64,000 nt of DNA from an uncultured Parasphingorhabdus sp. (GCF_963975735.1 NZ_CAXBIA010000008.1:26525-90524); one strand, 5' to 3'. Positions 372 through 27,510 are shown, numbered from the stretch's first letter. The notes: generated by a model from the letters alone, not told the origin. Program-made: numbers and translations.

Positions 372-929
372 TTGTCACGAAAGGGTCCTGATACCCAGCA
401 AATGATCGTGAGTTGGCGCGAAGGGGTTGCTGACGATCGTGATCGATTGATCCAGCATCTATTGCCTGAACTGCAGCAAATCGCGGCTGCTAGGCTTCGC
501 GGCGAGTATGGAAGCTCGCTTTCGACAGGTGATTTGATTAATGATGCAGTTCTCAAGCTGATCCGGATCGACAAGATTACTCTTGCAGACCGGGCACATT
601 TCATCGCTCTCTCATCCCGGCTGATGCGTAACATCTTGACCGATCACGCTCGCGCGAAGTCGTCAGAGAAACGTCGTCATCACAAGGTCGAACTCAACAC
701 GAGTATCGATGGCGAACAGAGATTTGATCTCGATTCACTCAATTCTGCGCTGATAAGATTGGGGGTTATTGATCCTCAATTAATGGAGATAGTTGAGATG
801 CGTTATTTTGGCGGCATGACGATTACCGATATAGCCGAAGTCAGTGGACTGTCCGAGCCAACCGTCAAACGGCGCTGGCAAACTGCCCGCGCTTGGTTAA
901 TGGCCGCTCTCGACGAGCAGGAGGTATGA
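372..929 (+). CDS. ECF-type RNA polymerase sigma-70 factor (kinase-associated subgroup)
   Basis: 185 aa. Region 2-like DLINDAVLKLIRID and region 4 HTH MRYFGGMTITDIAEVSGLSEPTVKRRWQTARAWL. The N-terminal WREG..D....L pattern is typical of the ECF subgroup paired with Ser/Thr kinases. TTG start at 372, alternative ATG at 402. Stop TGA 927-929 overlaps the kinase ATG 926-928. Confidence 0.85.
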   Translation: MSRKGPDTQQMIVSWREGVADDRDRLIQHLLPELQQIAAARLRGEYGSSLSTGDLINDAVLKLIRIDKITLADRAHFIALSSRLMRNILTDHARAKSSEKRRHHKVELNTSIDGEQRFDLDSLNSALIRLGVIDPQLMEIVEMRYFGGMTITDIAEVSGLSEPTVKRRWQTARAWLMAALDEQEV

Positions 930-3271
930 CCGATGCTGATATTGAACGCGAAGCCATAGCACTCTTCGAAGCGATGTTAGACATCGCTGAGCATGATCGC
1001 GATAACTGGTTGGCGCAACGGACTTCGAATAATTCTCCTATACGCATGCGCGTCGAAGCCATGCGTAGAGCTGACCGGAATGCTATGCTCCGTACTGGTA
1101 CTGCATCCGAAACTATTTCCGAGGAACTTGCTCCAGAGAGGATCGGTGCTTATCGGATAGTGAGCTTGATCGGTCGGGGCGGTATGGGTTCAGTCTATCG
1201 CGGCGAACGCGACGTGGGCGATTTTGACCATGTGGCTGCTATCAAATTAGTCAAGCCTGGGCTCCTGTCGACATCATTAACCGATCGGCTGCGAAAAGAA
1301 CGCCAAACACTTGCACAGTTGCGGCACCCCAATATAGCTCAACTTTACGATGGTGGTGAGACTCCCGAGGGACTTCCCTTTATCGTCATGGAATATGTTG
1401 ATGGCGAGCCTCTGCTCAACTGGGCTGACGGCAATAAATTGGATCTGAAAGCCAGAGCTGCATTGTTCGTGACAGTATGTGATGCCGTCGCATTTGCTCA
1501 CCGCCATCTCATTGTTCACCGAGATCTGACGCCATCGAATATTCTCGTTACATCGGACGGCACTGTCAAGCTGATCGACTTTGGTATCGCCAAGCCCGCT
1601 GAGACCGACACCGTGGACGTTCTGACGAGTTTGGTTACACCATCGATTGCTAGCCTAAGTCTGACGCCAGGTTTTGCCGCACCTGAACGGCTAACCAGCT
1701 TGCGGGTAACGACAGCTGCCGACGTATATTCTCTCGGCAAGATACTCGCCGCACTGATTCCCGAAAGTGAGACAGATCTTTCGGCAATTGTGTCAACGGC
1801 GACAGCTACTGAACTGGAAGATCGCTATGCTACTGTCGACGCTTTGCGTGATGATGTATCCGCTTGGCTTGAAGGTATGCCAGTCAGTGTGCGGCCAGGT
1901 GGGTGGCGTTATCGTACGGTGCTTTTTGTCAATCGTCACAGGCTCGGTAGCCTGTTAGGCGGTCTTGCATCGGTTTTTATAATTGGCGCATTGATAGTTG
2001 CGACTGTGGCTTATTCGCGAGCAGAGCGGGCCCGGCAAGCGGAGGCTGCGCGCTTTGCCGAAGTCCGCGATTTGGCCGGCTTTATGATTTTTGATCTCGA
2101 AGAGCGGCTTTCACGGGTCGTTGGGACAGGCGAGGCGCGAGTGGCGCTGACGAAACGGGCGCAAATTTATTTATCAGAACTGGCGAAGAATTCTAACGTT
2201 ACTGAGCAACTTCGATTGGAGGCAGCACGAGGCTTTCTTCAGTTAGCACTTATCCGCGGAATACCGGGTCAACCGAACCAAGGCGATCGCGTCGGTGCTC
2301 GACATAATATTTTGGACGCTCTCAAATTACTTCATGGAATGGAAACGGCAGAATCCAGAACCCTGAAGGTGCGTGTTTTGGCTAAACAGGCATTGCTGGA
2401 AGCCCATGTCGATAGCGATCTCAAAAAGGCAGGTGAGAGTGTTGAGAAAGCAACGCAGAATCTTGAAGCCGTCTCTGAATCTAAGCGTGGCGCCGCTTGG
2501 AAATCGGCGCGCAGCGACGTCCGGCGCAGCCAGCTTGAGCTAGCTTTGCTAAATGGAGATGCAGACGGGATTCGCAAATTTGCCGCTCTGCTGGCTCGCG
2601 AAGCACAAGAGCGTAGTTCCGATTCACTGCCTGATAGCGACGTTCGCCTAGATCAAGCCTTGGCAGAGCATTTCCTTGGGCTCGCTGGATATTTGTCGGA
2701 CAATCTCGATGAAGGCGTAACCTATTTCACAAATGCCGATCAGCGCTTCGCAGCGATCATCAAAGACGAACCAAATGAACCAAATTTGCTCTATTTGCGT
2801 GCTTTCAACGCTTATACAGGCCACGGAACCGCCGAAGGGTTGCCAGGGAAACGGTCCGCGGCAATCGCGTTTTTGCGTACCGCGACCGATAGTGTCGACA
2901 GGCTATTGGCTGTAGAACCAAATGATGCCGCAATGCTCAGTTTTGCAGCAGCCGTTAAACAAGCCCAAGCACAAGATCTGTCTGCTCAAGGTCGCTATTC
3001 ACAGGCAATCGAGACGCAGAAGCAAGTGATTGAGAATTATACTTCAGCTTACAGGCGCAGCAAAAGCCCCGGAACTGCCAACAAGCTTGTTGGTGCATAT
3101 CAAACGCTCGGACTGATTTTCGATCAGGCCGGTAATAAGAAACAAGCTTGCAACGCTCGTACCGATGCGATTGATTCGCTAGATGTCCTAAGAAAGGCCA
3201 ATCAATTATTGGGTTCTATTGAGGCGATGGAAGTGAAAATTAGGGCTTCTTTAAAAAGCTGTCCGGCATGA
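926..3271 (+). CDS. membrane-anchored Ser/Thr protein kinase with a large helical/TPR-like C-terminal domain
   Basis: Hanks-kinase motifs GRGGMGSVY, VAAIKLVK, HRDLTPSNILV and DFGIAK. One TM helix (LGSLLGGLASVFIIGALIVATVAY) followed by about 400 aa of helical repeats. Start set to ATG 926 (MTDADIERE), which overlaps the sigma stop (ATGA). Confidence 0.88.
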   Translation: MTDADIEREAIALFEAMLDIAEHDRDNWLAQRTSNNSPIRMRVEAMRRADRNAMLRTGTASETISEELAPERIGAYRIVSLIGRGGMGSVYRGERDVGDFDHVAAIKLVKPGLLSTSLTDRLRKERQTLAQLRHPNIAQLYDGGETPEGLPFIVMEYVDGEPLLNWADGNKLDLKARAALFVTVCDAVAFAHRHLIVHRDLTPSNILVTSDGTVKLIDFGIAKPAETDTVDVLTSLVTPSIASLSLTPGFAAPERLTSLRVTTAADVYSLGKILAALIPESETDLSAIVSTATATELEDRYATVDALRDDVSAWLEGMPVSVRPGGWRYRTVLFVNRHRLGSLLGGLASVFIIGALIVATVAYSRAERARQAEAARFAEVRDLAGFMIFDLEERLSRVVGTGEARVALTKRAQIYLSELAKNSNVTEQLRLEAARGFLQLALIRGIPGQPNQGDRVGARHNILDALKLLHGMETAESRTLKVRVLAKQALLEAHVDSDLKKAGESVEKATQNLEAVSESKRGAAWKSARSDVRRSQLELALLNGDADGIRKFAALLAREAQERSSDSLPDSDVRLDQALAEHFLGLAGYLSDNLDEGVTYFTNADQRFAAIIKDEPNEPNLLYLRAFNAYTGHGTAEGLPGKRSAAIAFLRTATDSVDRLLAVEPNDAAMLSFAAAVKQAQAQDLSAQGRYSQAIETQKQVIENYTSAYRRSKSPGTANKLVGAYQTLGLIFDQAGNKKQACNARTDAIDSLDVLRKANQLLGSIEAMEVKIRASLKSCPA

Positions 3272-3719
3272 TCACTGCCGCCTTCAATGGTTCAGCGGCG
3301 ACCGCTTCGTGTAAATCTATAATGAAGTACAGAGGCAAAAGATAAGGGCAAAGTAGACGACAAGCCAAATCTATTTGGATGACCAACCCTAAACGGAGCC
3401 GATTTTCTTCTTGCCAAGCATAGACGATGGCATCGTCTGAGTGTCTGCTTTCAGAAATTCCTCGCGACGACCTGATAGTCTGCAATTGGGCGCGAAGCAG
3501 ACAAAGGATCCGACTGTTGTCAATAACCGCTCGTGGGGCGTTAGCCGACTAGCCGCTTTTGACAAAATTCGGATAATCCACTGGACTTCGGTGTTTGTTC
3601 GAGCATTGCTATTGGGGTCGCTGCAAATAACCGCGACACGCCGCAGGGTTTTCAATCCCATCCGCGGCTTGGGTCAGTGGAAGAGCCGGATAGACCGGCT
3701 CCAATGCTGGAGACCCAAT

Positions 3720-3968
3720 GTGCCAACGACAAAACCCAAGACGCAAACCAAATCCGCCACCGTTATTGCGCTGCTAAACCGCGGCAAAGGCGCAACTCTT
3801 GGTGATATTTGCAAAGCCACAAAATGGCGAACCCACAGCGCTCGTGCGTTCCTGACTGGCCTGCGCAAGAAAGGCTTTACTATCACCCGCGAACAGCGCG
3901 GCGATGATGGCACGGCCTACAGGATTACACAGAATCCGGATCAGAGCGCGATACAGGCAGCATCATGA
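3720..3968 (+). CDS. DUF3489 domain protein
   Basis: Core ATLGDICKATKWRTHSARAFLTGLRKKGFTITREQRGDDGTAYRI resembles DUF3489 proteins. The track ORF 3441-3968 was trimmed to the in-frame GTG at 3720. Its stop overlaps the next ATG (ATGA at 3965-3968). Confidence 0.6.
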   Translation: MPTTKPKTQTKSATVIALLNRGKGATLGDICKATKWRTHSARAFLTGLRKKGFTITREQRGDDGTAYRITQNPDQSAIQAAS

Positions 3969-4423
3969 CCGCACTCGAACAGCAGTTGGCCGAACTGATG
4001 ACAATGCCCCCTGCCCAGCTGCGATCCTTGTGGCGCGACACATATCGATCGCCTGCTCCCGACATCGGACCAGACCTGCTCAGGCGCGGTATCGCCAATC
4101 GCCTGCAGGAACGTGTGCACGGCAGCCTGACAGGCGCCACCACGCGAGAAATCCAGCGCCTTCGCAAACGCGTCGAGCGCACCGGAAAAGCCGGCTACAT
4201 GCACGCCATCTCGTTGAAAACCGGAACCAGACTGGTTCGATCGTGGAACGGCAAAAGCTTTCATGTTCTGGTATGTGATGACGGGTTTGAGTTTGAGGGG
4301 CGCCACTACGAGAGCCTCAGTCATATCGCCCTAGAGATAACTGGCGCCCATTGGTCCGGCCCTCGCTTCTTCGGATTGAAGAAGCGGAGCGGATACAAAT
4401 CCAAGGCATCGGCTTATGTCTGA
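3965..4423 (+). CDS. DUF2924 domain protein (recombinase-associated)
   Basis: 152 aa. PPAQLRSLWRDTY ... GTRLVRSWNGKSFHVLVCDDGFEFEGRHYESLSHIALEITGAHWSGPRFFGL matches the DUF2924 pattern usually found just upstream of large serine recombinases. It overlaps the recombinase start by 8 nt. Confidence 0.65.
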   Translation: MTALEQQLAELMTMPPAQLRSLWRDTYRSPAPDIGPDLLRRGIANRLQERVHGSLTGATTREIQRLRKRVERTGKAGYMHAISLKTGTRLVRSWNGKSFHVLVCDDGFEFEGRHYESLSHIALEITGAHWSGPRFFGLKKRSGYKSKASAYV

Positions 4424-6059
4424 CAAACCCAAAAAGCTGCGCTGCGCCATCTATACGCGCAAATCGACCGAAGACGGGCTGGAACAGGATTTTAACAGTC
4501 TGGACGCTCAGCGTGAGGCCTGTGCTGCCTATATCCTCAGTCAGGCCAGCGAAGGCTGGGAAGCGGTTCCCGAACTGTATGATGACGGTGGCTGGTCTGG
4601 CGGTTCAATGAACCGACCTGCCATAACCCAGCTTCTCGGCGACATAAAAGCCGGCAAAGTCGATGTCATCGTTGTGTACAAGGTTGATCGACTGACCCGC
4701 TCGCTAGCTGACTTTGCCAAAATCGTTGAGATACTCGACGAGAACGAAGCCAGCTTTGTCAGCGTCACCCAATCGTTCAATACAACAACCAGCATGGGGC
4801 GCCTGACGCTGAACGTCCTTCTATCATTCGCGCAGTTCGAGCGCGAGGTGACCGGCGAACGCATCCGCGACAAAGTTGCGGCATCCAAGAAGAAAGGCAT
4901 GTGGATGGGAGGCGGTGTGCCGTTTGGATATGATGTTATAGAACGCCAGTTAGTGATCAACCAATCTGAAGCGGAAATCGTGTGCTGGATGTTTGAACGC
5001 TACACAGAGATAAGATCAGTGCCGCAGCTGGTCGAGGAAATGGCGGCGAAAGGTATCAAAACTAGAATGCGTGTCTGGAAAACGGGAAAGGTTGTGGGTG
5101 GAGTTACTTTCAAAACCGGTACTCTGACCCATCTCCTTCAAAACCCGGTCTATGTTGGCAAGGTGAAACATAAGGACAATGTCTACGATGGAGCCCACCA
5201 AGCCGTAATCTCTCAAGAGCTGTTTGATATCGTTCAGGGCACCTTTGAGGCCAATCGACGCACCAATGCGCTGGGTAAGAAAAGCCGCAACCCGAGTCTG
5301 CTAACGGGCATGATCACGGATCCAGATGGCAAACCGATGACGCCCACCCATGCAACCAAGGGATCAAAACGGTTCCGCTATTATGTCACCCGTACCCAAC
5401 CAGGAGACCAATCAACCAAATGGCGCATGCCCGCTGGGGAAATCGAGAGGCTGGTGGTTGATGCAGTTGCGAAGCAACTGGGCTTTGTTGATTCCAACGG
5501 CGATGAGACCGCAGCTCATCTTTCCGAGCTGATAAACAAACGTCAGGATATTGCTGGTGCCCTGCCCGGCATGACCATCAGGGAACAGCGCAAAATATTG
5601 CTCAGCAGGCAGACCAGCGTGGAGGTGAACGAAGCTGCTATAAAAATAAGTTCCAAACCATCAGATCAGGATGAGCCATCCACAATATCCGTCAAGGCAA
5701 AGCTGGTGAGCAAGGGCTCCGACTTAAAACTCGCTATCGCACCTGACCAAGGCCCGCCCAAACGGGACCCCGATCCAGTGCTTCTACGATTGATCGCTCA
5801 TGCGTTTGCAGCGCAAGACCTTCTGCTCTCAGGAAAACCATCGCCGATGATCGCAGAATATAGCCCGCGCCATCTCCAGCAGCTTACCCGGCTAAGCTAT
5901 CTTGCCCCTGACATTATCTCCTCCATTATAGATGGCGCGCAGCCAGTTGATCTCACCGGCCGCAAGATCCTGCGCATTGGCGGCGTTCCGCTTTGCTGGA
6001 GAGCACAGCGCGAGCTGCTCGGCTTCAACGGAAGCTCGAAAACCACCCAATTCCAATAG
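4416..6059 (+). CDS. large serine recombinase (resolvase/invertase N-terminal catalytic domain)
   Basis: 547 aa. RCAIYTRKSTEDGLEQDFNSLDAQREAC (catalytic Ser context), VYKVDRLTRSLADF and SFAQFEREVTGERIRDK, then the recombinase domain and a long C-terminal extension. Confidence 0.9.
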   Translation: MSDKPKKLRCAIYTRKSTEDGLEQDFNSLDAQREACAAYILSQASEGWEAVPELYDDGGWSGGSMNRPAITQLLGDIKAGKVDVIVVYKVDRLTRSLADFAKIVEILDENEASFVSVTQSFNTTTSMGRLTLNVLLSFAQFEREVTGERIRDKVAASKKKGMWMGGGVPFGYDVIERQLVINQSEAEIVCWMFERYTEIRSVPQLVEEMAAKGIKTRMRVWKTGKVVGGVTFKTGTLTHLLQNPVYVGKVKHKDNVYDGAHQAVISQELFDIVQGTFEANRRTNALGKKSRNPSLLTGMITDPDGKPMTPTHATKGSKRFRYYVTRTQPGDQSTKWRMPAGEIERLVVDAVAKQLGFVDSNGDETAAHLSELINKRQDIAGALPGMTIREQRKILLSRQTSVEVNEAAIKISSKPSDQDEPSTISVKAKLVSKGSDLKLAIAPDQGPPKRDPDPVLLRLIAHAFAAQDLLLSGKPSPMIAEYSPRHLQQLTRLSYLAPDIISSIIDGAQPVDLTGRKILRIGGVPLCWRAQRELLGFNGSSKTTQFQ

Positions 6060-6241
6060 TGCATCTGGTGCCAGCGTTTTGGGCCATGGAGATAAAAAGG
6101 CATTATGCCCTACTATGGCCGCTGCCAAATGGTCTCTGGTCACGGGAGCTCCCATGCGGCGCGAGCTAACCCTCTAAGAACTTGGCATTAAATTGGCCCA
6201 AGGCCGCAGTGCCGCTAGACATTGAAAAATAAGAAAAAAGG

Positions 6242-6317
6242 TGGTGCCCGAGGGCGGATTCGAACCACCGACACAGCGATTTTCAGTCGCTTGCTCTACC
6301 AACTGAGCTACTCGGGC
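6242..6317 (-). tRNA. tRNA-Phe (anticodon GAA)
   Basis: The reverse complement reads GCCCGAGTAGCTCAGTTGGTAGAGCAAGCGACTGAAAATCGCTGTGTCGGTGGTTCGAATCCGCCCTCGGGCACCA. It is a 76-nt cloverleaf with anticodon loop CTGAAAA, a GTTCGAATC T-loop and an encoded CCA. Confidence 0.95.
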
Positions 6318-18735: not shown

Positions 18736-19201
18736 GCCGAATAAGCCGGACATTTGCTGTGCCTGAAGAGGCGCAAACAAAGAGGATGGCACCAGAAGCG
18801 TCGCAGGGACCACGTCCTGTAGGGGGGCGGACGCGAGACCAGCTTGTCCCGGGAACAGGAGCTTGCCCATGCGGTAGGCAATATTCCCGGACCAGATTTT
18901 GCGAATCCGCATTCTGGCACCATCCCCCATGATTGAGCTTCGATGCGACCCGCGAGCTTATGACGCTCTTTCCGGATGTTCACTCAGCTGCCAGTTGGAT
19001 AGCATGAAGGCGCGCTGCGCTGTTTTTCATTCGACCAACGGCTATCGACCGTCGACGAAAGAATAAGCATGCTGCCCTGCCCGCACCTGGTGGAAAGTGC
19101 TCTATTAAGGCCTGTCCCGCGCCATATTCAAAAGAGCGTTGGATTTACTGCTCTTACCGGTTACCAGTTGTAAAAGCGTCGGATCGCTGCAGGGGGCCAA
19201 T

Positions 19202-21232
19202 ATGGTGGAAGCACGGGAAATTGATGTCCTGATCGTCGGCGGCGGTTTTTCGACCATGCCGCTGGTCCGCGAGCTCGACGCCAGCGGGATCAAATGGCTG
19301 ATGGTGTCGGAAATGACCCCGATCTGGCAACAGCTGGAAGCCGCCGATGCGCTGGATTTCGATCTGGTCAGTTCCCTGCAGAGCAGCGTCTATTCCTTCG
19401 AACTGGTCGAGATGCTGAAAGAGCAGGGCGAGGATTTTACCGACGGTTTCCCGACCGCTCGCGAATTTTACGCGATCCACAAGAAATATGCCTCGCGCTA
19501 CGCCGACCATATCCACCACGGGCGGGTCGGCAGTATCGACAATCATCCGGATCACAGCATTGTCCACCTAGAGAGTGGCGAGCAGTTCCGCGCGCAGCAT
19601 GTCGTCGTCGCCACCGCTTTCCGGCGGCAGATGAATGCCAATCTCAAGCAGATCAAAATTGATGCCAGCTATGCCGGCAAGAATGTCGCGATCACCTCGA
19701 CCGGCGACAGTTCCAACCTGCTGATCGCCAAGCTGGTCGCTCATGGCGCGAAAGTGCATCTTGTCACCAATGGCTTCATCATGCTCGACAAGATGTTCGC
19801 CACCTTCTCGCCATTCGACGACGGCCCGCGTTTCGTCCCGCTCGACCAGCTCGAATGTCACAATTTCTCCGAAGTCAGCAAATGGAGCTATCGTGCGTTC
19901 ATCGACGGCGGCTATATTCACGGCCTGATCCACCGCTGGTTCGCGAAGTTTTTCGACCGCAACAGCCTCGGCGTGCGCCACCCCAAGAGCATCCGGCCGC
20001 ACGAAAGTCTCCGGACCTTTTTCGAAGCCAGGGCACCGATTGAAAACGGTCATATCGCGATCAAATATTGGCCGATCGATGTCTACAAACTCTATTGCGA
20101 CGAGACGCTCGAGCAGAAGATCAGCGACGGCTATCTGATCAACGACCTGCCCTTCTTCCTCGAACATGGCCATGTGAAATTGTGGGACAAGGCGGTCGCC
20201 ACGCTTGACCGCGAAGCGATGACGCTGACCGAGGGCGGCGAGACGGCGACGTTTGACGAGATTATCGACGGCGATCAGGAAGTGCCCAATATCCCCGAAA
20301 TCCGGCTTTGCGGCGATCAAGCGTCGGAGCATTTTATCTACAAGACGCGGCAACAGTTTCTCGGTGTGATATCCCCCCGCCTGCGCAACATCTACACCAT
20401 CGGTTTCACCCGTCCCTTCACCGGCGGGCTCAACAATATCAGCGAGATGCAATGCCTGCTGGTCCACCGGATGATCAGCGATCCGGAATTCCGCCACAGC
20501 GTCAACGCCAATATCGAACAGCGGATCGCAACCTATAACGCGAACTATTATGCCAGACGGCCGGAGAGCAAGACCGACCATCTGGTCTGGTACGGCACCT
20601 ATACCGACGAGGTCGCGCGACTACTCGGCATCCGCCCGAAACGCAGCGACACGCCCGGCCTCAAGGGGCTGATGAAATATTATATGTTCCCGAACAATGT
20701 GTTCCGCTTCCGCGAGACCGGCCGCTATGCGGTGGACGGCGTCGACGAGCTGCTCACCCACACAGCGAAACAATATCACGACTATAAAGTCCTGGCGCTG
20801 CTGGTCATTCGCTACCCGTTTTTCGAGCTGCTCGCCCTCGGCACGATCCTGTTCGCGCCGGTGCCGTGGTGGGTCAAAGTCCCGGCAGCGATCATCCACA
20901 ACCGGCTGCCGTTTACCTCGACGCTGGTCGGGAAATTCGGATTGCCGACACGGGAGAGCAAGGCGATCTTCAATTACCGCAAGGCGATCAGCTTTCCGGT
21001 GCTGGCCTATCCGGTGGTCGCGGCGGTCGTGTGGGCAGCGGCGGGCATGGGAGCGGCGTTCGCGCTTTCGGCAGGGTTACTCGCTTATGTCTATGCGATG
21101 GTGCATCTGGGCACGGCGAAGGGATGGAACCGCAAGTTCTTCTGCGACATGAAGAGCAAAAGGTCGATGGAGATGGTTGGGTTTTTTGAGCGGTACCGGA
21201 AGGTTTTTGGGCGGGTTAAGGGCGGTGTTTAG
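19202..21232 (+). CDS. putative FAD/NAD(P)-binding oxidoreductase with C-terminal membrane segments
   Basis: N-terminal dinucleotide-binding fold IDVLIVGGGFSTMP. About 676 aa, with the last roughly 150 aa holding several hydrophobic helices (LALLVIRYPFFELLALGTILFAPVPWW; AISFPVLAYPVVAAVVWAAAGMGAAFALSAGLLAYVYAMV). Start set to ATG 19202. Precise family not recognised. Confidence 0.55.
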   Translation: MVEAREIDVLIVGGGFSTMPLVRELDASGIKWLMVSEMTPIWQQLEAADALDFDLVSSLQSSVYSFELVEMLKEQGEDFTDGFPTAREFYAIHKKYASRYADHIHHGRVGSIDNHPDHSIVHLESGEQFRAQHVVVATAFRRQMNANLKQIKIDASYAGKNVAITSTGDSSNLLIAKLVAHGAKVHLVTNGFIMLDKMFATFSPFDDGPRFVPLDQLECHNFSEVSKWSYRAFIDGGYIHGLIHRWFAKFFDRNSLGVRHPKSIRPHESLRTFFEARAPIENGHIAIKYWPIDVYKLYCDETLEQKISDGYLINDLPFFLEHGHVKLWDKAVATLDREAMTLTEGGETATFDEIIDGDQEVPNIPEIRLCGDQASEHFIYKTRQQFLGVISPRLRNIYTIGFTRPFTGGLNNISEMQCLLVHRMISDPEFRHSVNANIEQRIATYNANYYARRPESKTDHLVWYGTYTDEVARLLGIRPKRSDTPGLKGLMKYYMFPNNVFRFRETGRYAVDGVDELLTHTAKQYHDYKVLALLVIRYPFFELLALGTILFAPVPWWVKVPAAIIHNRLPFTSTLVGKFGLPTRESKAIFNYRKAISFPVLAYPVVAAVVWAAAGMGAAFALSAGLLAYVYAMVHLGTAKGWNRKFFCDMKSKRSMEMVGFFERYRKVFGRVKGGV

Positions 21233-21295
21233 TATTAGAAGCAGGGACATAGGATACAACTAGCACCACAACTGGACGTCCAGCTCCGAAACAAA

Positions 21296-22735
21296 TTATT
21301 CAACTAAGCATAGAGATGGATCACCATTGGTGTTTTCAGCCTTCCGAAAACACTGTTGCAAGGAAATCAGTTTCTGTTGAGCTTCCAGCTGTTTGGCATA
21401 ACCGCTTGACAAGCTTTCTGCCTGGCTGGAGTAATTTACCCTGAGTTGTAGAATCTCGGCCGGAACTGATATAACTGCTTTCAATAAGCGGATCGGAAGG
21501 CGGACAATTTCGAGCACTTCACTTGGCCGATTTGCTTCCCACGATGTCAGCATACCTTTGTCAAATACGATATTGTCCACTGTCTTAACGAATGCCGACG
21601 AGCGTAACGGAATATAGCTGACCGGTCCAGCCTGCGGGAGAGCTACAAGTGCACCTTGGACGGGAACTCCCGGAGTACGTTGAGAAAGATTACACCCTCC
21701 AACGCACTGCCGAATGGTTATCGTAGCTGGCAACGCCGTACGATATAAAAGCCCGTCGACAGGCTGACAAAGTTGCAATTTCTGTTGCGACGCATTCTGA
21801 ATTGGCTCCTTTTTGCAATTCCCCGAATGATCGAAGGTATTTGAAGTCAATAATGGCACTTTACGTGAAGGCGCTTCGGCATCACTTCGTTGTTCCAATA
21901 AGTTCTTCACTTCCGCATCTACAAAAAATGGCCAATTGGCTCGATTCAGTTCGTCATTCACCTTTTTGCGTTCGTCCTCGCTGATCGGATCAAAGATATA
22001 TCGGAAATCCTTGATTGGTGTATCACAGTTCACAGGCGCTACAGGTTCCTCGCCAACAACCTTGGAACGAGCGACTGGCAATGAGCCCCCTCCGAATGCG
22101 GCGAATGCTCCAGCTAGCTCCACAATAACATCGCCGGTCCGGTCAGCAGCGGTAACGTTTGCGGAAGAAAGTAACCCGTCGCTGGAAACCATAAATTTCT
22201 GCTCATCATCTCGAAGTATATTATGACTCAAATTTGCAACAAATCTCGCCGAGGGGTCTGGAGAGAACGGTTGAAGTTCCAGCTTTACATCATACGAATA
22301 AATACAGGCTTTATCTCCAAAAGTTCGCAGCGTGTCCTCCAAGTCTATGATTTCTGCTTTCTTGAGAAGTTGAGTCCGTTGTGCGTCGCCGGCTTTGAAC
22401 TCCGCTATCGTGGCATCGTCTTGGAGTTTCTGCCTTCTCAAGCTACTGATCGGATTCGCATTTAATGCGTTGTCTGCCGCCGCTTTTTCTATTTTAGCTG
22501 CTTTTTCTGCATCCTCTGCAGCACCCAATGCCGTCACGGCTGCTTTGATTTTTTTCTCTACGTCCGCCTTTCGCAACGGCGCTCTAGCACCGACAAAAGC
22601 AACTTCTCGTTTCGGCAGAAAATAACTCATGCCTTCAGCATTAGATTGATCATGTCTGAATCCGTGCGTCTTTACAGTAGCACAACCACTTAAAAAAACC
22701 GACAGACTGGCGGTAACAATCAGCGCGACTCGCAT
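21296..22735 (-). CDS. hypothetical lipoprotein (479 aa), partner of the caspase-like protease
   Basis: Lipobox signal peptide MRVALIVTASLSVFLSGC, an Ala/Lys-rich helical segment (KKIKAAVTALGAAEDAEKAAKIEKAAADNAL) and several Cys pairs. AAGGAG RBS 8 nt upstream. AT-rich codon usage. No family confidently recognised. Confidence 0.75.
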   Translation of the reverse strand: MRVALIVTASLSVFLSGCATVKTHGFRHDQSNAEGMSYFLPKREVAFVGARAPLRKADVEKKIKAAVTALGAAEDAEKAAKIEKAAADNALNANPISSLRRQKLQDDATIAEFKAGDAQRTQLLKKAEIIDLEDTLRTFGDKACIYSYDVKLELQPFSPDPSARFVANLSHNILRDDEQKFMVSSDGLLSSANVTAADRTGDVIVELAGAFAAFGGGSLPVARSKVVGEEPVAPVNCDTPIKDFRYIFDPISEDERKKVNDELNRANWPFFVDAEVKNLLEQRSDAEAPSRKVPLLTSNTFDHSGNCKKEPIQNASQQKLQLCQPVDGLLYRTALPATITIRQCVGGCNLSQRTPGVPVQGALVALPQAGPVSYIPLRSSAFVKTVDNIVFDKGMLTSWEANRPSEVLEIVRLPIRLLKAVISVPAEILQLRVNYSSQAESLSSGYAKQLEAQQKLISLQQCFRKAENTNGDPSLCLVE

Positions 22736-22765
22736 TGACCTTCTCCTTATTCGGTGATGTTCAGT

Positions 22766-23611
22766 CTAAATCGAAAATGGTTTTTCAAATGGGAAGATGT
22801 TGGTGTTCTTTCCAAATGCCTTATTAGTAGGGTTTTGGTAGCTTGGGATTTCACTTGCGACCCGATTTCGAAAGTCGTCATAGTTTCCCTCAAATCGACC
22901 ATAGTTCCATGTTTTGACCAAAGCCGTTGTAAAGAAGCCACCGAAGGGGTTTTCGTAGGACAGTTCGAAATCTTGACAGGCCGCAAGCAGAAGTCCGGTG
23001 GACTGCATTGAGGCCTTTATTTGAGCTTCAGAGACATCCCCGAGCGCTTGTTTGGTGACTTCTTGCAATCCTTCATAAAATTTTCGGTTTGCAAAATAAG
23101 TGTTTTGAAGAATGGTTGCGGGGGCTCGTCTCACACGAACGTCTGGTCCATAAGAAAATCCGTCCGCCGAACCACCGAATGCCATTTTTTCCATTCCGCC
23201 AGAGTAGCAACTATCGGAGATAATCAGGATGCGACAACCCTCAACAAATGCCGCCCAGGCCCGAACCAATTCGTCGTCCATCAGTTGACCGTCAAACAGA
23301 CACCAGGTCTCATCGTCTCCAAAATCGTCTGGCTCCACCAAATCGGGAACCTTGCCGCCATGTCCCGAATAGGTGATCATAAAAATATCACCTTTTTGCG
23401 TTTTCTCGGCAGCTACGCGAATATGACGTAATACATTATCACGGGTAGCGGCCGTCGTCCGGAGTTTCCCCAGATTTTCAAATCCCGCGCTTGACGCTAG
23501 ATTTGCCATGGTGTGCATATCATTTTCGCACGCATTCAATGCACCGTCCCAACCATCATAGTGATTGGGATCGACGCTGTTCAAACCGATGTGTAGTGAA
23601 TATCCTGCCAT
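22766..23611 (-). CDS. caspase-like peptidase (C14 family; orthocaspase/metacaspase-like)
   Basis: YSLHIGLNSVDPNHYDGWDGALNACENDMHTM, FMITYSGHGG (catalytic His context) and ILIISDSCYSGG (catalytic Cys context). No signal peptide. Start set to ATG 23611, 5 nt after GGAGG. Confidence 0.85.
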   Translation of the reverse strand: MAGYSLHIGLNSVDPNHYDGWDGALNACENDMHTMANLASSAGFENLGKLRTTAATRDNVLRHIRVAAEKTQKGDIFMITYSGHGGKVPDLVEPDDFGDDETWCLFDGQLMDDELVRAWAAFVEGCRILIISDSCYSGGMEKMAFGGSADGFSYGPDVRVRRAPATILQNTYFANRKFYEGLQEVTKQALGDVSEAQIKASMQSTGLLLAACQDFELSYENPFGGFFTTALVKTWNYGRFEGNYDDFRNRVASEIPSYQNPTNKAFGKNTNIFPFEKPFSI

Positions 23612-23705
23612 CTTATCCTCCATGTTTCGATTTAAATGCTCCCGATAGCTCCCCAACACCCGTGACCCCCGTCACGCTCCCCCAAAAACTCCCCTCTTGA
23701 AAACA

Positions 23706-23720
23706 GAACAAACATTGAAC
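23706..23720. promoter_or_regulatory. putative LexA operator (alphaproteobacterial SOS box GTTC-N7-GTTC, seen here as GAAC-N7-GAAC)
   Basis: GAACAAACATTGAAC lies 70 nt upstream of the uvrA ATG, directly after a TTGAAA -35-like hexamer (23697-23702). uvrA is a classical SOS gene. Confidence 0.6.
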
Positions 23721-23789
23721 ATATAGCGCAGATCACCCTGTCCCTTTGGCCCGCTGGACTCTCTCCGGCATCTTCTGCAAAGCACGCTC

Positions 23790-26700: not shown

Positions 26701-26810
26701 AAGGCGGCGTGCGCGGCGGCGAGATCGTCGCGCAAGGCACGCCGGAAGAGGTCGCCAAGGTCAAGGCAAGCTTCACCGGCGGCTATCTGAAGGATATGCT
26801 GGCGAAGTGA
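23790..26810 (+). CDS. uvrA: excinuclease ABC subunit A
   Basis: 1006 aa. [12 protein letters not shown], two ABC modules ([10 protein letters not shown] twice, LSGGE signature twice) and the zinc-module cysteines. Carries an extra repeat-derived segment at 24544-24649. Confidence 0.97.
24544..24570. repeat. short REP-like element inside uvrA
   Basis: GTGCTTCGACAAGCTCAGCACGAACGG, with internal complementarity GTGCT..AGCAC. It ends in the same CGAACGG as the neighbouring palindrome and is translated as ..[10 protein letters not shown].. Confidence 0.55.
24594..24649. repeat. REP/MITE-like imperfect palindrome inside the uvrA reading frame
   Basis: CCGTTCGTGTCGAGCGAAGTCGAGACACCCCTCTCGACTGCGCTCGAGGCGAACGG. 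The arms match the hisF-hisA spacer element (10386-10460) almost base for base. Translated in frame as [19 protein letters not shown]. Confidence 0.8.
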
Positions 26811-27142
26811 GCCGCGATCAAAGGAAGCTGTTGTTTGTCTGTTCCCGCAACCGATTGCGCAGTCCCACTGCCGAAGCGGTGTTGAATGGTGTGGAAACGG
26901 TAACTGCCATTTCCGCAGGCACGAACAATGACGCCGAAACACCGCTATCCGGCGATCTGATCATATGGGCGGATATCATCTATGTGATGGAGACCGCCCA
27001 CAAGAAGAAGATCACCCGGACATTTGGCGAATTGCTGAAGGATAAGCCCGTCAGAAATCTTGCTATTCCGGACAATTACAAGTTCATGGAACCGGATCTT
27101 GTCACCAGAATAAAATCCAAATTCCCGGAATATTTCTCTTAA
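26807..27142 (+). CDS. low-molecular-weight protein-tyrosine-phosphatase-like protein
   Basis: 111 aa. [17 protein letters not shown] is a C-X5-R-S phosphatase P-loop. The GTG start overlaps the uvrA TGA (GTGA). Confidence 0.65.
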
Positions 27143-27510
27143 TAGCGTAGCGCCTTCGCCTGCCAAAGCAGCAGCAACGGTGACAGCAATTCGACAACCA
27201 TCGCTCCGATTTGCTCGGTCGGTGCTGGGCCTACGGTAAGGTAGGATACCGCCCTTGCGCATCCACCGATGAAGAAAAACAATATCCCGAAGCGGAACAG
27301 ACTGGCCCGTCGCCTCAGATCGCCGGCGCTGTAGAAAAACATCGCGGCAACCCCGAGATAAACGCCGGAATAATAGCGATACTGGTTATCCAGCGCGATG
27401 CTGAACGGGTCTCCCCCCATATGCTCCGCCGCTCCGAAAAATATTCCGTTCACGCCGAACCAAAGCGGAATGAAGCTAATCAATATTGTGGCAAAGCGAA
27501 ACGCGATCAT
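27139..27510 (-). CDS. small integral membrane protein (DUF4345-like)
   Basis: 123 aa with four hydrophobic helices. Resembles DUF4345, but the assignment is tentative. Confidence 0.5.
   Translation of the reverse strand: MIAFRFATILISFIPLWFGVNGIFFGAAEHMGGDPFSIALDNQYRYYSGVYLGVAAMFFYSAGDLRRRASLFRFGILFFFIGGCARAVSYLTVGPAPTEQIGAMVVELLSPLLLLWQAKALRY

Follow-up and report, generated by a model that had tools for sequence, protein, structure and literature searches.

A caspase-like gene and a lipoprotein gene form a low-G+C islet

The window, by which we mean the whole stretch of DNA analysed (64,000 nt from an uncultured Parasphingorhabdus sp., GCF_963975735.1 NZ_CAXBIA010000008.1:26525-90524), contains a small islet of low G+C flanked by gmk and a flavoprotein-like gene on one side and by uvrA on the other. 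The islet holds two co-directional genes on the minus strand, one for a caspase-like C14 peptidase and one for a 479-residue lipoprotein of a large unnamed family. Across this family the lipoprotein gene is frequently found directly beside a peptidase gene on the same strand, and the catalytic class of the peptidase varies. The pair in the window is very probably the C14 variant of a mobile cassette in which a constant lipoprotein is combined with an exchangeable peptidase. The islet is made up as follows (positions count from the first letter of the window; ORF, open reading frame).

21233-21295, no strand: convergent gap of 63 nt to the gene for a 697-aa flavoprotein-like protein; downstream boundary of the islet (ORF map)
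21296-22735, minus strand: gene for the 479-aa lipoprotein of a large unnamed family (ORF, homolog searches, neighbourhood survey)
22736-22765, minus strand: intergenic spacer of 30 nt holding the Shine-Dalgarno sequence AAGGAG at 22743-22748 (sequence)
22766-23611, minus strand: gene for the stand-alone C14 (metacaspase-like) peptidase, 281 aa, GSU0716/3BIJ type (ORF, Pfam, PDB match)
23612-23789, no strand: divergent intergenic region of 178 nt shared with uvrA, G+C 0.528; upstream boundary of the islet (ORF map)
23617-23621, minus strand: Shine-Dalgarno sequence GGAGG, 5 nt 5' of the caspase ATG (direct sequence reading)

The caspase ORF encodes 281 residues from its ATG; a GTG-extended alternative would encode 297 and reach 23659. 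The AAGGAG in the spacer lies 7 nt 5' of the lipoprotein ATG. A first-pass annotation of this DNA, made from the sequence by a model, had described the same ORFs, spacer and Shine-Dalgarno sites, and the ORF map and sequence bear it out. Because a terminator scan found no terminator in the spacer, the two genes are likely co-transcribed. Their promoter likely lies in the divergent region 23612-23789, inside which a simple promoter scan gave no promoter-like match.

Whole-gene G+C is 0.477 and 0.474 for the pair and 0.577 for the window, the two lowest values among the 58 ORFs of the window (z about -2.6 and -2.7, with the GTG-extended call), and G+C at third codon positions (GC3) averages 0.655 but is 0.435 and 0.473 in the two genes. 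The two genes are thus nearly equal in G+C. Three 60-nt counts made by hand in the first-pass annotation were reproduced exactly (0.350, 0.433, and 0.567); over whole genes the contrast is milder than in these samples, yet real. At the downstream boundary, G+C drops from 0.576 in the flavoprotein-like gene to 0.477, and since 0.576 is typical of the window, that gene lies outside the islet. The pair is compositionally foreign, consistent with the horizontal acquisition proposed earlier. No integrase, tRNA, or convincing flanking repeat was found beside the pair between 21.2 and 23.8 kb, as had also been noted; with these island hallmarks (integrase, tRNA target, direct repeats) absent, composition is what marks the islet as foreign. 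Separately, a 15-nt exact direct repeat, TCACCTTTTTGCGTT, occurs at 21958-21972 in the lipoprotein gene and at 23388-23402 in the caspase gene, and is probably due to chance in A/T-rich coding sequence.

The first gene encodes a predicted C14 peptidase of the GSU0716 type

As judged from its sequence, the first gene encodes a C14 peptidase that stands alone, belongs to the GSU0716/3BIJ type, and has kept its His-Cys dyad intact. The codons of the dyad are:

23207-23209, minus strand: predicted catalytic Cys135, motif SDSCYSG (sequence; alignment A2; SDSCHSG of 3BIJ and plant metacaspases)
23360-23362, minus strand: predicted catalytic His84, motif YSGHGG (sequence; alignment A2; 3BIJ motif)

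Pfam PF00656 matches residues 16-256 with 72.9 bits against a cut-off of 21.4 (E 4.1e-20), and the protein aligns over its full length with PDB 3BIJ (residues 3-281 against 4-277 of 285, E 1.2e-67). The two residues lie in the motifs FMITYSGHGG, which starts at residue 77, and ILIISDSCYSGG, which starts at residue 128. Both are invariant in 24 homologs (alignment A2), and their motifs line up with plant and yeast metacaspase structures too. The dyad named in the first-pass annotation therefore holds in profile and alignment alike. As that annotation also said, the protein has no predicted signal peptide, and none appears when the alternative GTG start is included.

The window caspase is an ordinary member of a known, functionally orphan family, which is very large (4250 matches) and consists mostly of stand-alone proteins of 268-300 aa. 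With 22.1 bits against a cut-off of 140 for NCBIfam NF047832 (caspase_w_EACC1), it is not an EACC1-associated caspase, and PADLOC-DB 2.0 gave only a weak generic 'caspase' match (E 2.9e-7, 28 bits). Plasmid and phage searches found the caspase on 25 plasmids and in no phage; the plasmid copies of the domain either stand alone or make up the C-terminus of longer proteins (about 638 aa), and their contexts vary.

Several of these contexts deserve mention in their own right. The proteins of about 638 aa include those of L026 and L029 (Sinorhizobium meliloti pSymA; Rhizobium ruizarguesonis pTA1_2). Together with the matching protein of Palleronia (H19), which is annotated as peptidoglycan-binding, they adjoin cell-wall or secreted hydrolases, namely a C1 peptidase, a TIGR02594 protein, a chitosanase, and an L,D-transpeptidase. 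At L022, the gene before the closest caspase homolog is L,D-transpeptidase-like as well. At L010:3316-6015, the gene after a 56%-identical caspase homolog encodes a protein that combines a TIR_2/ThsB-like domain and a transmembrane segment with TPR repeats, which suggests that GSU0716-type caspases also occur in other conflict-type pairings. A 43%-identical homolog heads a co-directional run at L023:6001-11757 that encodes a 190-aa membrane protein, secreted proteins of 139 and 762 aa, a Peptidase_M15_3 protein, and a patatin-like phospholipase; this run is another envelope- or lipid-directed context for the caspase family.

The second gene encodes an exported lipoprotein of a large unnamed family

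From its sequence, the 479-aa protein is an exported lipoprotein, a predicted substrate of signal peptidase II, and it is probably anchored in the outer membrane. The following segments were distinguished.

22682-22735, minus strand: signal peptide and lipobox LSGC with Cys18 and Ala at +2 (sequence; A1 conservation)
22313-22570, minus strand: Ala/Lys-rich alpha-helical hairpin, residues 56-141 (AlphaFold2 helices 56-91 and 98-141, predicted local distance difference test score (pLDDT) about 90-96)
21521-22312, minus strand: beta-rich core, residues 142-405 (alignment A1; models)
21332-21520, minus strand: C-terminal helix of about 63 residues, 406-468 (AlphaFold2; A1)

The N-terminus, MRVALIVTASLSVFLSGC, is a canonical lipobox signal that fits the pattern [LVI][ASTVI][GAS]C. 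Its Cys18 is nearly invariant across homologs (alignment A1), and a lipobox-like motif is present in 98 of 125 representative family sequences. Two cysteine pairs are conserved, Cys144/Cys237 and the nearly invariant Cys462/Cys476 at the C-terminal end of the helix region, as would fit an exported protein. Invariant across the family in the same alignment are D160, H171, R175, D198, C237, Y331, R332, R403, S405, and E406.

The full-length AlphaFold2 model has a mean pLDDT of 76 and places two N-terminal strands before the hairpin; two variable loops of the core, 205-236 and 287-321, were modelled with low confidence. Confidence in the core domain is modest, with a pLDDT of 65 for a core-only model, and this model had no Foldseek match in the PDB (best E 0.7). 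For the full-length model, Foldseek searches of the PDB and BFVD returned nothing significant, the matches being confined to coiled coils and helical hairpins; its best neighbours were AcrA/MacA-type adaptors at a non-significant E of 7e-3 and TM-scores of 0.14-0.17. The hairpin (86 residues) drew PDB matches of the coiled-coil type only, and a sequence profile of the lipoprotein searched against the PDB returned coiled-coil noise only.

Sequence libraries were likewise uninformative. The lipoprotein has no Pfam family at E <= 1, no NCBIfam match, and no PADLOC match, and 32 family members gave nothing beyond coiled-coil noise in Pfam. Membership of DUF4831, DUF4398, or any other Pfam family was rejected, the profile match being absent; the label 'DUF4398' that one source attaches to one Caulobacter homolog found no confirmation in Pfam. 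The family is nameless in all libraries searched, in line with the first-pass description of a lipobox-bearing exported protein without a named family, and our literature search found no paper on it or on an orthocaspase-lipoprotein operon. Besides 71 close homologs of the window lipoprotein, a full HMMER scan of 1.84 billion cluster representatives placed 3082 clusters at 50% identity in the family at E <= 1e-3, and 569 at E <= 1e-30. The window lipoprotein matched just two plasmid or chromid records and a concatenated query of nine diverse lipoprotein cores matched one such record; the family had no match in viral contigs or phage genomes.

Peptidase genes of many classes adjoin the lipoprotein gene

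Genomes supplied 7, metagenomes 11, and direct look-up another 2 of the 20 loci with closer homologs of the window lipoprotein that we searched with the window caspase by tblastn. In none of the 20 did tblastn detect a caspase. The notion of a fixed caspase-lipoprotein operon was therefore dropped; in this narrow sense the two genes are not co-conserved, an outcome that the first-pass annotation had listed as one that would refute its proposal. Nor did a shared partner emerge from the caspase side: unrelated genes follow the closest caspase homologs (56-57% identity), and the neighbours found there (a signal-peptide helical protein, a TIR-transmembrane-TPR protein, and an outer-membrane-like protein) show no relationship to the lipoprotein family (hhalign probability <1%). 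An all-against-all comparison of flanking ORFs gave no conserved non-protease neighbour of the lipoprotein.

What the family shares is adjacency to a peptidase. We surveyed 24 independent lineages out of thousands, assigning neighbours by Pfam scans and precomputed annotations, and found a same-strand peptidase gene directly beside the lipoprotein gene in about 16 of them. By class, the peptidases are distributed as follows.

M10/astacin-type metzincin: L003, L002, L004, L008, L009, L012, L015, L034 (Caulobacter segnis), L039
Subtilase S8: L005, L018, and L021, directly beside; L001, about 950 nt downstream
Trypsin-like S1, two genes: L019
C70 peptidase: L020
M48-like peptidase: L011
C14 peptidase: the window; L036

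Several of the metzincin calls combine sub-threshold Pfam matches with HExxH motifs and homology to better-scoring neighbours. In the M10 peptidase of L012, a PG_binding_1 prodomain is accompanied by the cysteine switch PRCGFPD. At L037, a C92 peptidase gene lies two genes away from the lipoprotein gene. Against an assumed, unmeasured background of 6-10%, the assumed chance of a peptidase at one of two neighbours, 12 to 16 of 24 lineages correspond to a binomial P of about 1e-6 to 1e-14; the 12 are curated-threshold Pfam matches with L001 included, and the 16 are the directly adjacent cases with the weaker, HExxH-supported ones included.

The window fits the definition of the cassette, with its C14 gene upstream, co-directional, and separated by 30 nt. 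The same combination recurs independently in L036, a Brevundimonas metagenome-assembled genome, in which a lipoprotein 28% identical to that of the window is followed by a 276-aa GSU0716-type C14 peptidase 35% identical to the window caspase (E 6e-43). There the caspase start codon overlaps the lipoprotein stop codon, and the pair sits among IS21, UvrD, resolvase, and ParB genes. A tblastn match on Rhizobium plasmids led to a third C14 context, a six-gene operon present in R. johnstonii pRlX4 (L031:3660-11101) and R. leguminosarum WSM1325 pR132503 (L032:4834-12285). Its products are a secreted protein of 255 aa, two distant lipoprotein paralogs, and two S1 peptidases with, encoded between them, a C14 peptidase of 659 aa that has a signal peptide; the paralogs match the family profile with hhalign probabilities of 98% and 97%. 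The operon thus groups exported proteases together, and its host can be cultured and is genetically tractable. Together, the variable-class adjacency and the L036 pairing lend strong support, at the level of the family, to the uncharacterised protease-partner module that had been suggested for the window.

Other genes were recorded near the cassettes, often ones of conflict or mobile types. A gene of the animal haem peroxidase family lies directly upstream of the lipoprotein gene on the same strand at L034:3229-4971 and L017:17-1093, and in L034 (Caulobacter segnis) the lipoprotein gene has the M10 peptidase gene downstream besides the peroxidase gene upstream. Conflict-type neighbours comprise NB-ARC with TPR, TPR-S fused to a cyclase, TIR_2, pNTSase1, KAP NTPase, SUKH, Mrr, and HEPN-ApeA; those of the mobile type are a type IV secretion system coupling protein, insertion sequence (IS) elements, a resolvase, and ParB.

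Peptidase classes alternate between related lipoproteins, with a breakpoint in one pair of loci

The class of the peptidase does not track the phylogeny of the lipoprotein. The lipoproteins of L005 (S8) and L019 (two S1 genes) are 78% identical, and that of L001 (S8) is 70% identical to those of L003 and L004 (M10). The lipoprotein of the window (C14) is 52% and 49% identical to those of its nearest relatives, L009 and L008, which carry an M10-like lipoprotein and no caspase, and the L036 lipoprotein (C14) is 43% identical to that of L039 (astacin/M10).

The exchange can be followed at the DNA level in two marine alphaproteobacterial contigs, L005:4564-11329 and L019:555-7294, which are collinear with 82-85% identity from the upstream genes onwards. 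In L019 the shared sequence runs on for about 40 nt beyond the lipoprotein gene; after that point the contigs are unrelated, with a subtilase gene in one and two trypsin-like genes in the other. The abrupt divergence marks a recombination breakpoint where the two parts of the cassette join, next to the 3' end of the lipoprotein gene. In about ten other loci, G+C within the cassette falls 5-16 points below that of the flanking DNA, a pattern consistent with repeated horizontal transfer.

Other low-G+C regions and neighbouring genes

The flavoprotein-like gene downstream of the islet (19139-21232, 697 aa) has sub-threshold Pfam and NCBIfam matches only (NAD_binding_9, Pyr_redox_2, and ArsO-like), and the C-terminal end of its product looks hydrophobic. 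Just downstream of uvrA, a second, weaker G+C dip extends over 26807-27510; it covers a small LMWPc-like gene (26807-27142, G+C 0.49), which overlaps the uvrA stop codon by 4 nt, and a convergent gene for a DUF4345 membrane protein (27139-27510). A separate low-G+C island at 372-6317 of the window carries genes for an extracytoplasmic function (ECF) sigma factor (372-929), a 792-aa Ser/Thr protein kinase (893-3271, GC3 0.47), a DUF3489 protein (3441-3968), and a large serine recombinase (4416-6059). Directly next to this last gene lies a tRNA-Phe gene (6242-6317, minus strand), which is the sole tRNA gene in the window and does not belong to the islet; this island looks like an element integrated at the tRNA-Phe gene.

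What the peptidase and the lipoprotein may do for each other

Because the pairing persists even where one protease has given way to another of unrelated catalytic class, we favour an enzyme-substrate relation between the two proteins. The partner peptidase would cut the lipoprotein, probably within one of the variable, disordered loops of the core or at the helical ends, and the cut would switch on an activity directed at the envelope, such as membrane perturbation or release. The logic would be that of the gasdermin, EACC1, and Pepco modules, shifted outside the cytoplasm, and might serve phage defence, interbacterial conflict, or enzyme release. We hold the statement as a whole, the cassette together with proteolytic licensing of the lipoprotein as an envelope-directed effector, to be evenly poised. 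Activation of the lipoprotein by its partner's cut, which we propose by analogy, is a possibility that we would place somewhat below even. Extended to all of the roughly 3000 clusters, as latent exported lipoprotein effectors that adjacent peptidases activate to perturb the envelope, with protease cassettes exchanged at the 3' end of the gene, the proposal is speculative and on balance unlikely.

A number of observations weigh against this reading. The survey is small, with its 24 lineages, crude mechanical ORF calls, and several sub-threshold Pfam assignments; no peptidase was found in L035, L030, L007, or L013, and some loci have other enzymes nearby, such as Amidase_3 (L038) or the haem peroxidase. 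The islet itself adjoins housekeeping genes (gmk, uvrA) and no defence island. The partner peptidases are without the sensor domains typical of defence proteases, neither protein of the window has a convincing PADLOC match, and cleavage as the mechanism is purely our inference. Finally, the window caspase has no signal peptide, while the lipoprotein has a lipobox and cysteine pairs typical of export. This compartment mismatch, raised as a caveat in the first-pass annotation, is real and applies to roughly half of the family's cassettes: partners without a signal are both stand-alone caspases (window and L036), the metzincins of L034, L012, L002, and L003, the C70 peptidase of L020, and the amidase of L038. 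The other half carry a signal peptide or a lipobox, namely the peptidases of L001, L004, L005, L008, L009, L011, and L015, both of those in L019, and all three Rhizobium enzymes.

The main rival turns this mismatch into an argument. The enzyme, be it protease, amidase, or peroxidase, would be the payload and the lipoprotein its release or translocation factor, in the manner of colicin-release (lysis) lipoproteins or of the holin- or spanin-assisted exit of signal-less endolysins. A constant machine with variable cargo accounts equally well for the swapping of classes. Partners of an extracytoplasmic type that lack a signal peptide (the L012 M10 with its PG_binding_1 domain, the L038 Amidase_3, and the L034 M10) speak for this reading, and a non-peptidase partner, the haem peroxidase collinear with the lipoprotein gene in L034 and L017, fits a payload role too. 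The architecture of the lipoprotein, with long amphipathic helices and an alpha-hairpin inserted between beta-strands, points the same way, as do its sole, weak structural neighbours AcrA and MacA (E 7e-3 at best; one MacA chain reached a Foldseek probability of 0.97); yet that resemblance is non-significant by its TM-scores. No inner-membrane component such as a holin or an ABC transporter is conserved beside the lipoprotein gene, many partners already own a signal peptide or lipobox, and the GSU0716-type caspase has no known extracellular role. Viral contigs and phage genomes, where lysis cassettes would be expected to reside, hold no homolog. We regard release of a payload as improbable.

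Could the lipoprotein instead restrain or place its neighbour, as an inhibitor or immunity protein that guards the producer's envelope against the protease, or as an outer-membrane anchoring or adaptor protein, like the lipoproteins of the NlpI-Prc and LbcA-CtpA pairs? The genes are tightly adjacent and co-directional, many of the partner proteases are exported or are lipoproteins themselves and hence would share its compartment, and an immunity-type SUKH gene lies near the L004 cassette. Such roles nevertheless fit poorly because the protease classes alternate: known inhibitors and adaptors fit one protease fold, whereas here five or six unrelated catalytic classes alternate on lipoproteins that are 70-78% identical. 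A cytoplasmic partner such as the window caspase would need no periplasmic inhibitor, and Pfam, the PDB profile search, and Foldseek gave no similarity to a known inhibitor family. A protective or adaptor role is accordingly very improbable. Equally improbable is a chance meeting of two accessory genes, each acting alone, in a variable spot upstream of uvrA; the absence of the pair from the 20 loci first checked, the huge caspase family with its many unrelated contexts, and the differing compartments speak for it, but it fits poorly because of the family-wide association, which is far above the assumed background, and it leaves aside the recurrence of this caspase type in L036, where its start codon overlaps the stop codon of a distant lipoprotein homolog, the C14 gene of the Rhizobium operon, and the short spacer and matching G+C of the two genes in the window.

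Comparison with known systems

GSU0716 of Geobacter sulfurreducens (PDB 3BIJ) shares with the window caspase the motifs YSGHGG and SDSC(H/Y)SG, its size, and the lack of extra domains. Choi and Berges (PMC3734836) placed it among the bacterial type I metacaspases, which have the p20 and p10 regions, here without a prodomain, and reported its type to be missing from Alphaproteobacteria. GSU0716 comes from structural genomics and has neither a function nor a partner assigned to it, whereas the window caspase occurs in a sphingomonad and is paired with a lipoprotein, a pairing undescribed for this type. The functionally orphan GSU0716-type metacaspases would thereby gain a concrete, testable candidate partner.

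Colicin-release and holin-endolysin-spanin systems also place a lipoprotein beside an enzyme or toxin that has to exit the cytoplasm yet has no signal peptide, and they too occur as mobile cassettes. Colicin or bacteriocin release lipoproteins have about 30-50 aa and spanins about 60-150 aa, whereas proteins of the present family have 450-500 aa and a large beta-core; moreover, no conserved holin or immunity gene and no phage homologs were found here. With the periplasmic adaptors AcrA, MacA, and EmrA the lipoprotein has in common a lipid anchor, a periplasmic location, and a long alpha-hairpin between beta-strands, and such adaptors head its Foldseek matches. Assignment to the HlyD/AcrA adaptor family was rejected: these matches are non-significant, no HlyD-family Pfam match was obtained, and the loci contain no transporter genes.

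Bacterial gasdermins offer another parallel: 43 of 50 adjoin proteases (10.1101/2021.06.07.447441). In both systems, a constant non-enzymatic partner lies beside a protease, the proteases include Peptidase C14, the neighbours are of the defence type, and the partner bears a lipid on an N-terminal Cys, palmitoyl in bacterial gasdermins and predicted lipobox acylation here. The differences are that the present partner is exported by a signal peptide and is about twice the size, and that its proteases are small, lack TPR, NACHT, and WD40 sensor domains, and are exported in about half of the cases; metzincins, which are partners here, are not mentioned for gasdermins in the passages of that report used here. 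No gasdermin was among the listed top 50 Foldseek PDB matches of the full-length (pLDDT 76) or the core (pLDDT 65) model, and with no Pfam, NCBIfam, PADLOC, or fold match, identity of the lipoprotein with a bacterial gasdermin was rejected. Of the link to gasdermins drawn in the first-pass annotation, the analogy of a protease beside its partner stands, while no similarity in sequence or fold was found.

Modular protease-effector pairs are likewise known among protease-licensed defence effectors, which include the metallo-beta-lactamase (MBL)-fold nuclease, the alpha/beta-hydrolase, Pepco/Trypco, and EACC1; the MBL effectors pair with trypsin-like, caspase-like, or S8 proteases, and the effectors are latent, with pore formers among them (Evans et al. 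2025, PMC12642450). The modules described there reside in the cytoplasm, are fused to sensors, and keep one protease class per effector clade, whereas here the class changes between close relatives. The window lipoprotein is not in that report's list of ten protease-linked families, and a known anti-phage defence system was rejected on the PADLOC-DB 2.0 results, no match for the lipoprotein and the weak generic one for the caspase.

The module that our data point to, a protease with its partner at the bacterial cell envelope, is so far undescribed. The licensing of effectors by proteases increasingly looks like a dominant logic in prokaryotic immunity and cell death, and the characterised cases are all cytoplasmic; if the licensing proposed here is true, it would extend this logic to the periplasm or the outer membrane, and the alternative would be a new route of enzyme release from Gram-negative cells. 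Cultured carriers exist in Caulobacter segnis (CP027850, 3.613-3.625 Mb), with its peroxidase-lipoprotein-M10 arrangement, and in Rhizobium leguminosarum WSM1325 (pR132503, 23.2-30.7 kb), with the six-gene operon; they make the proposal directly testable. A protease with a partner is a kind of system already known; what is new is the exported lipoprotein as the partner, the breadth of protease classes, metzincins included, and the frequent export of the protease.

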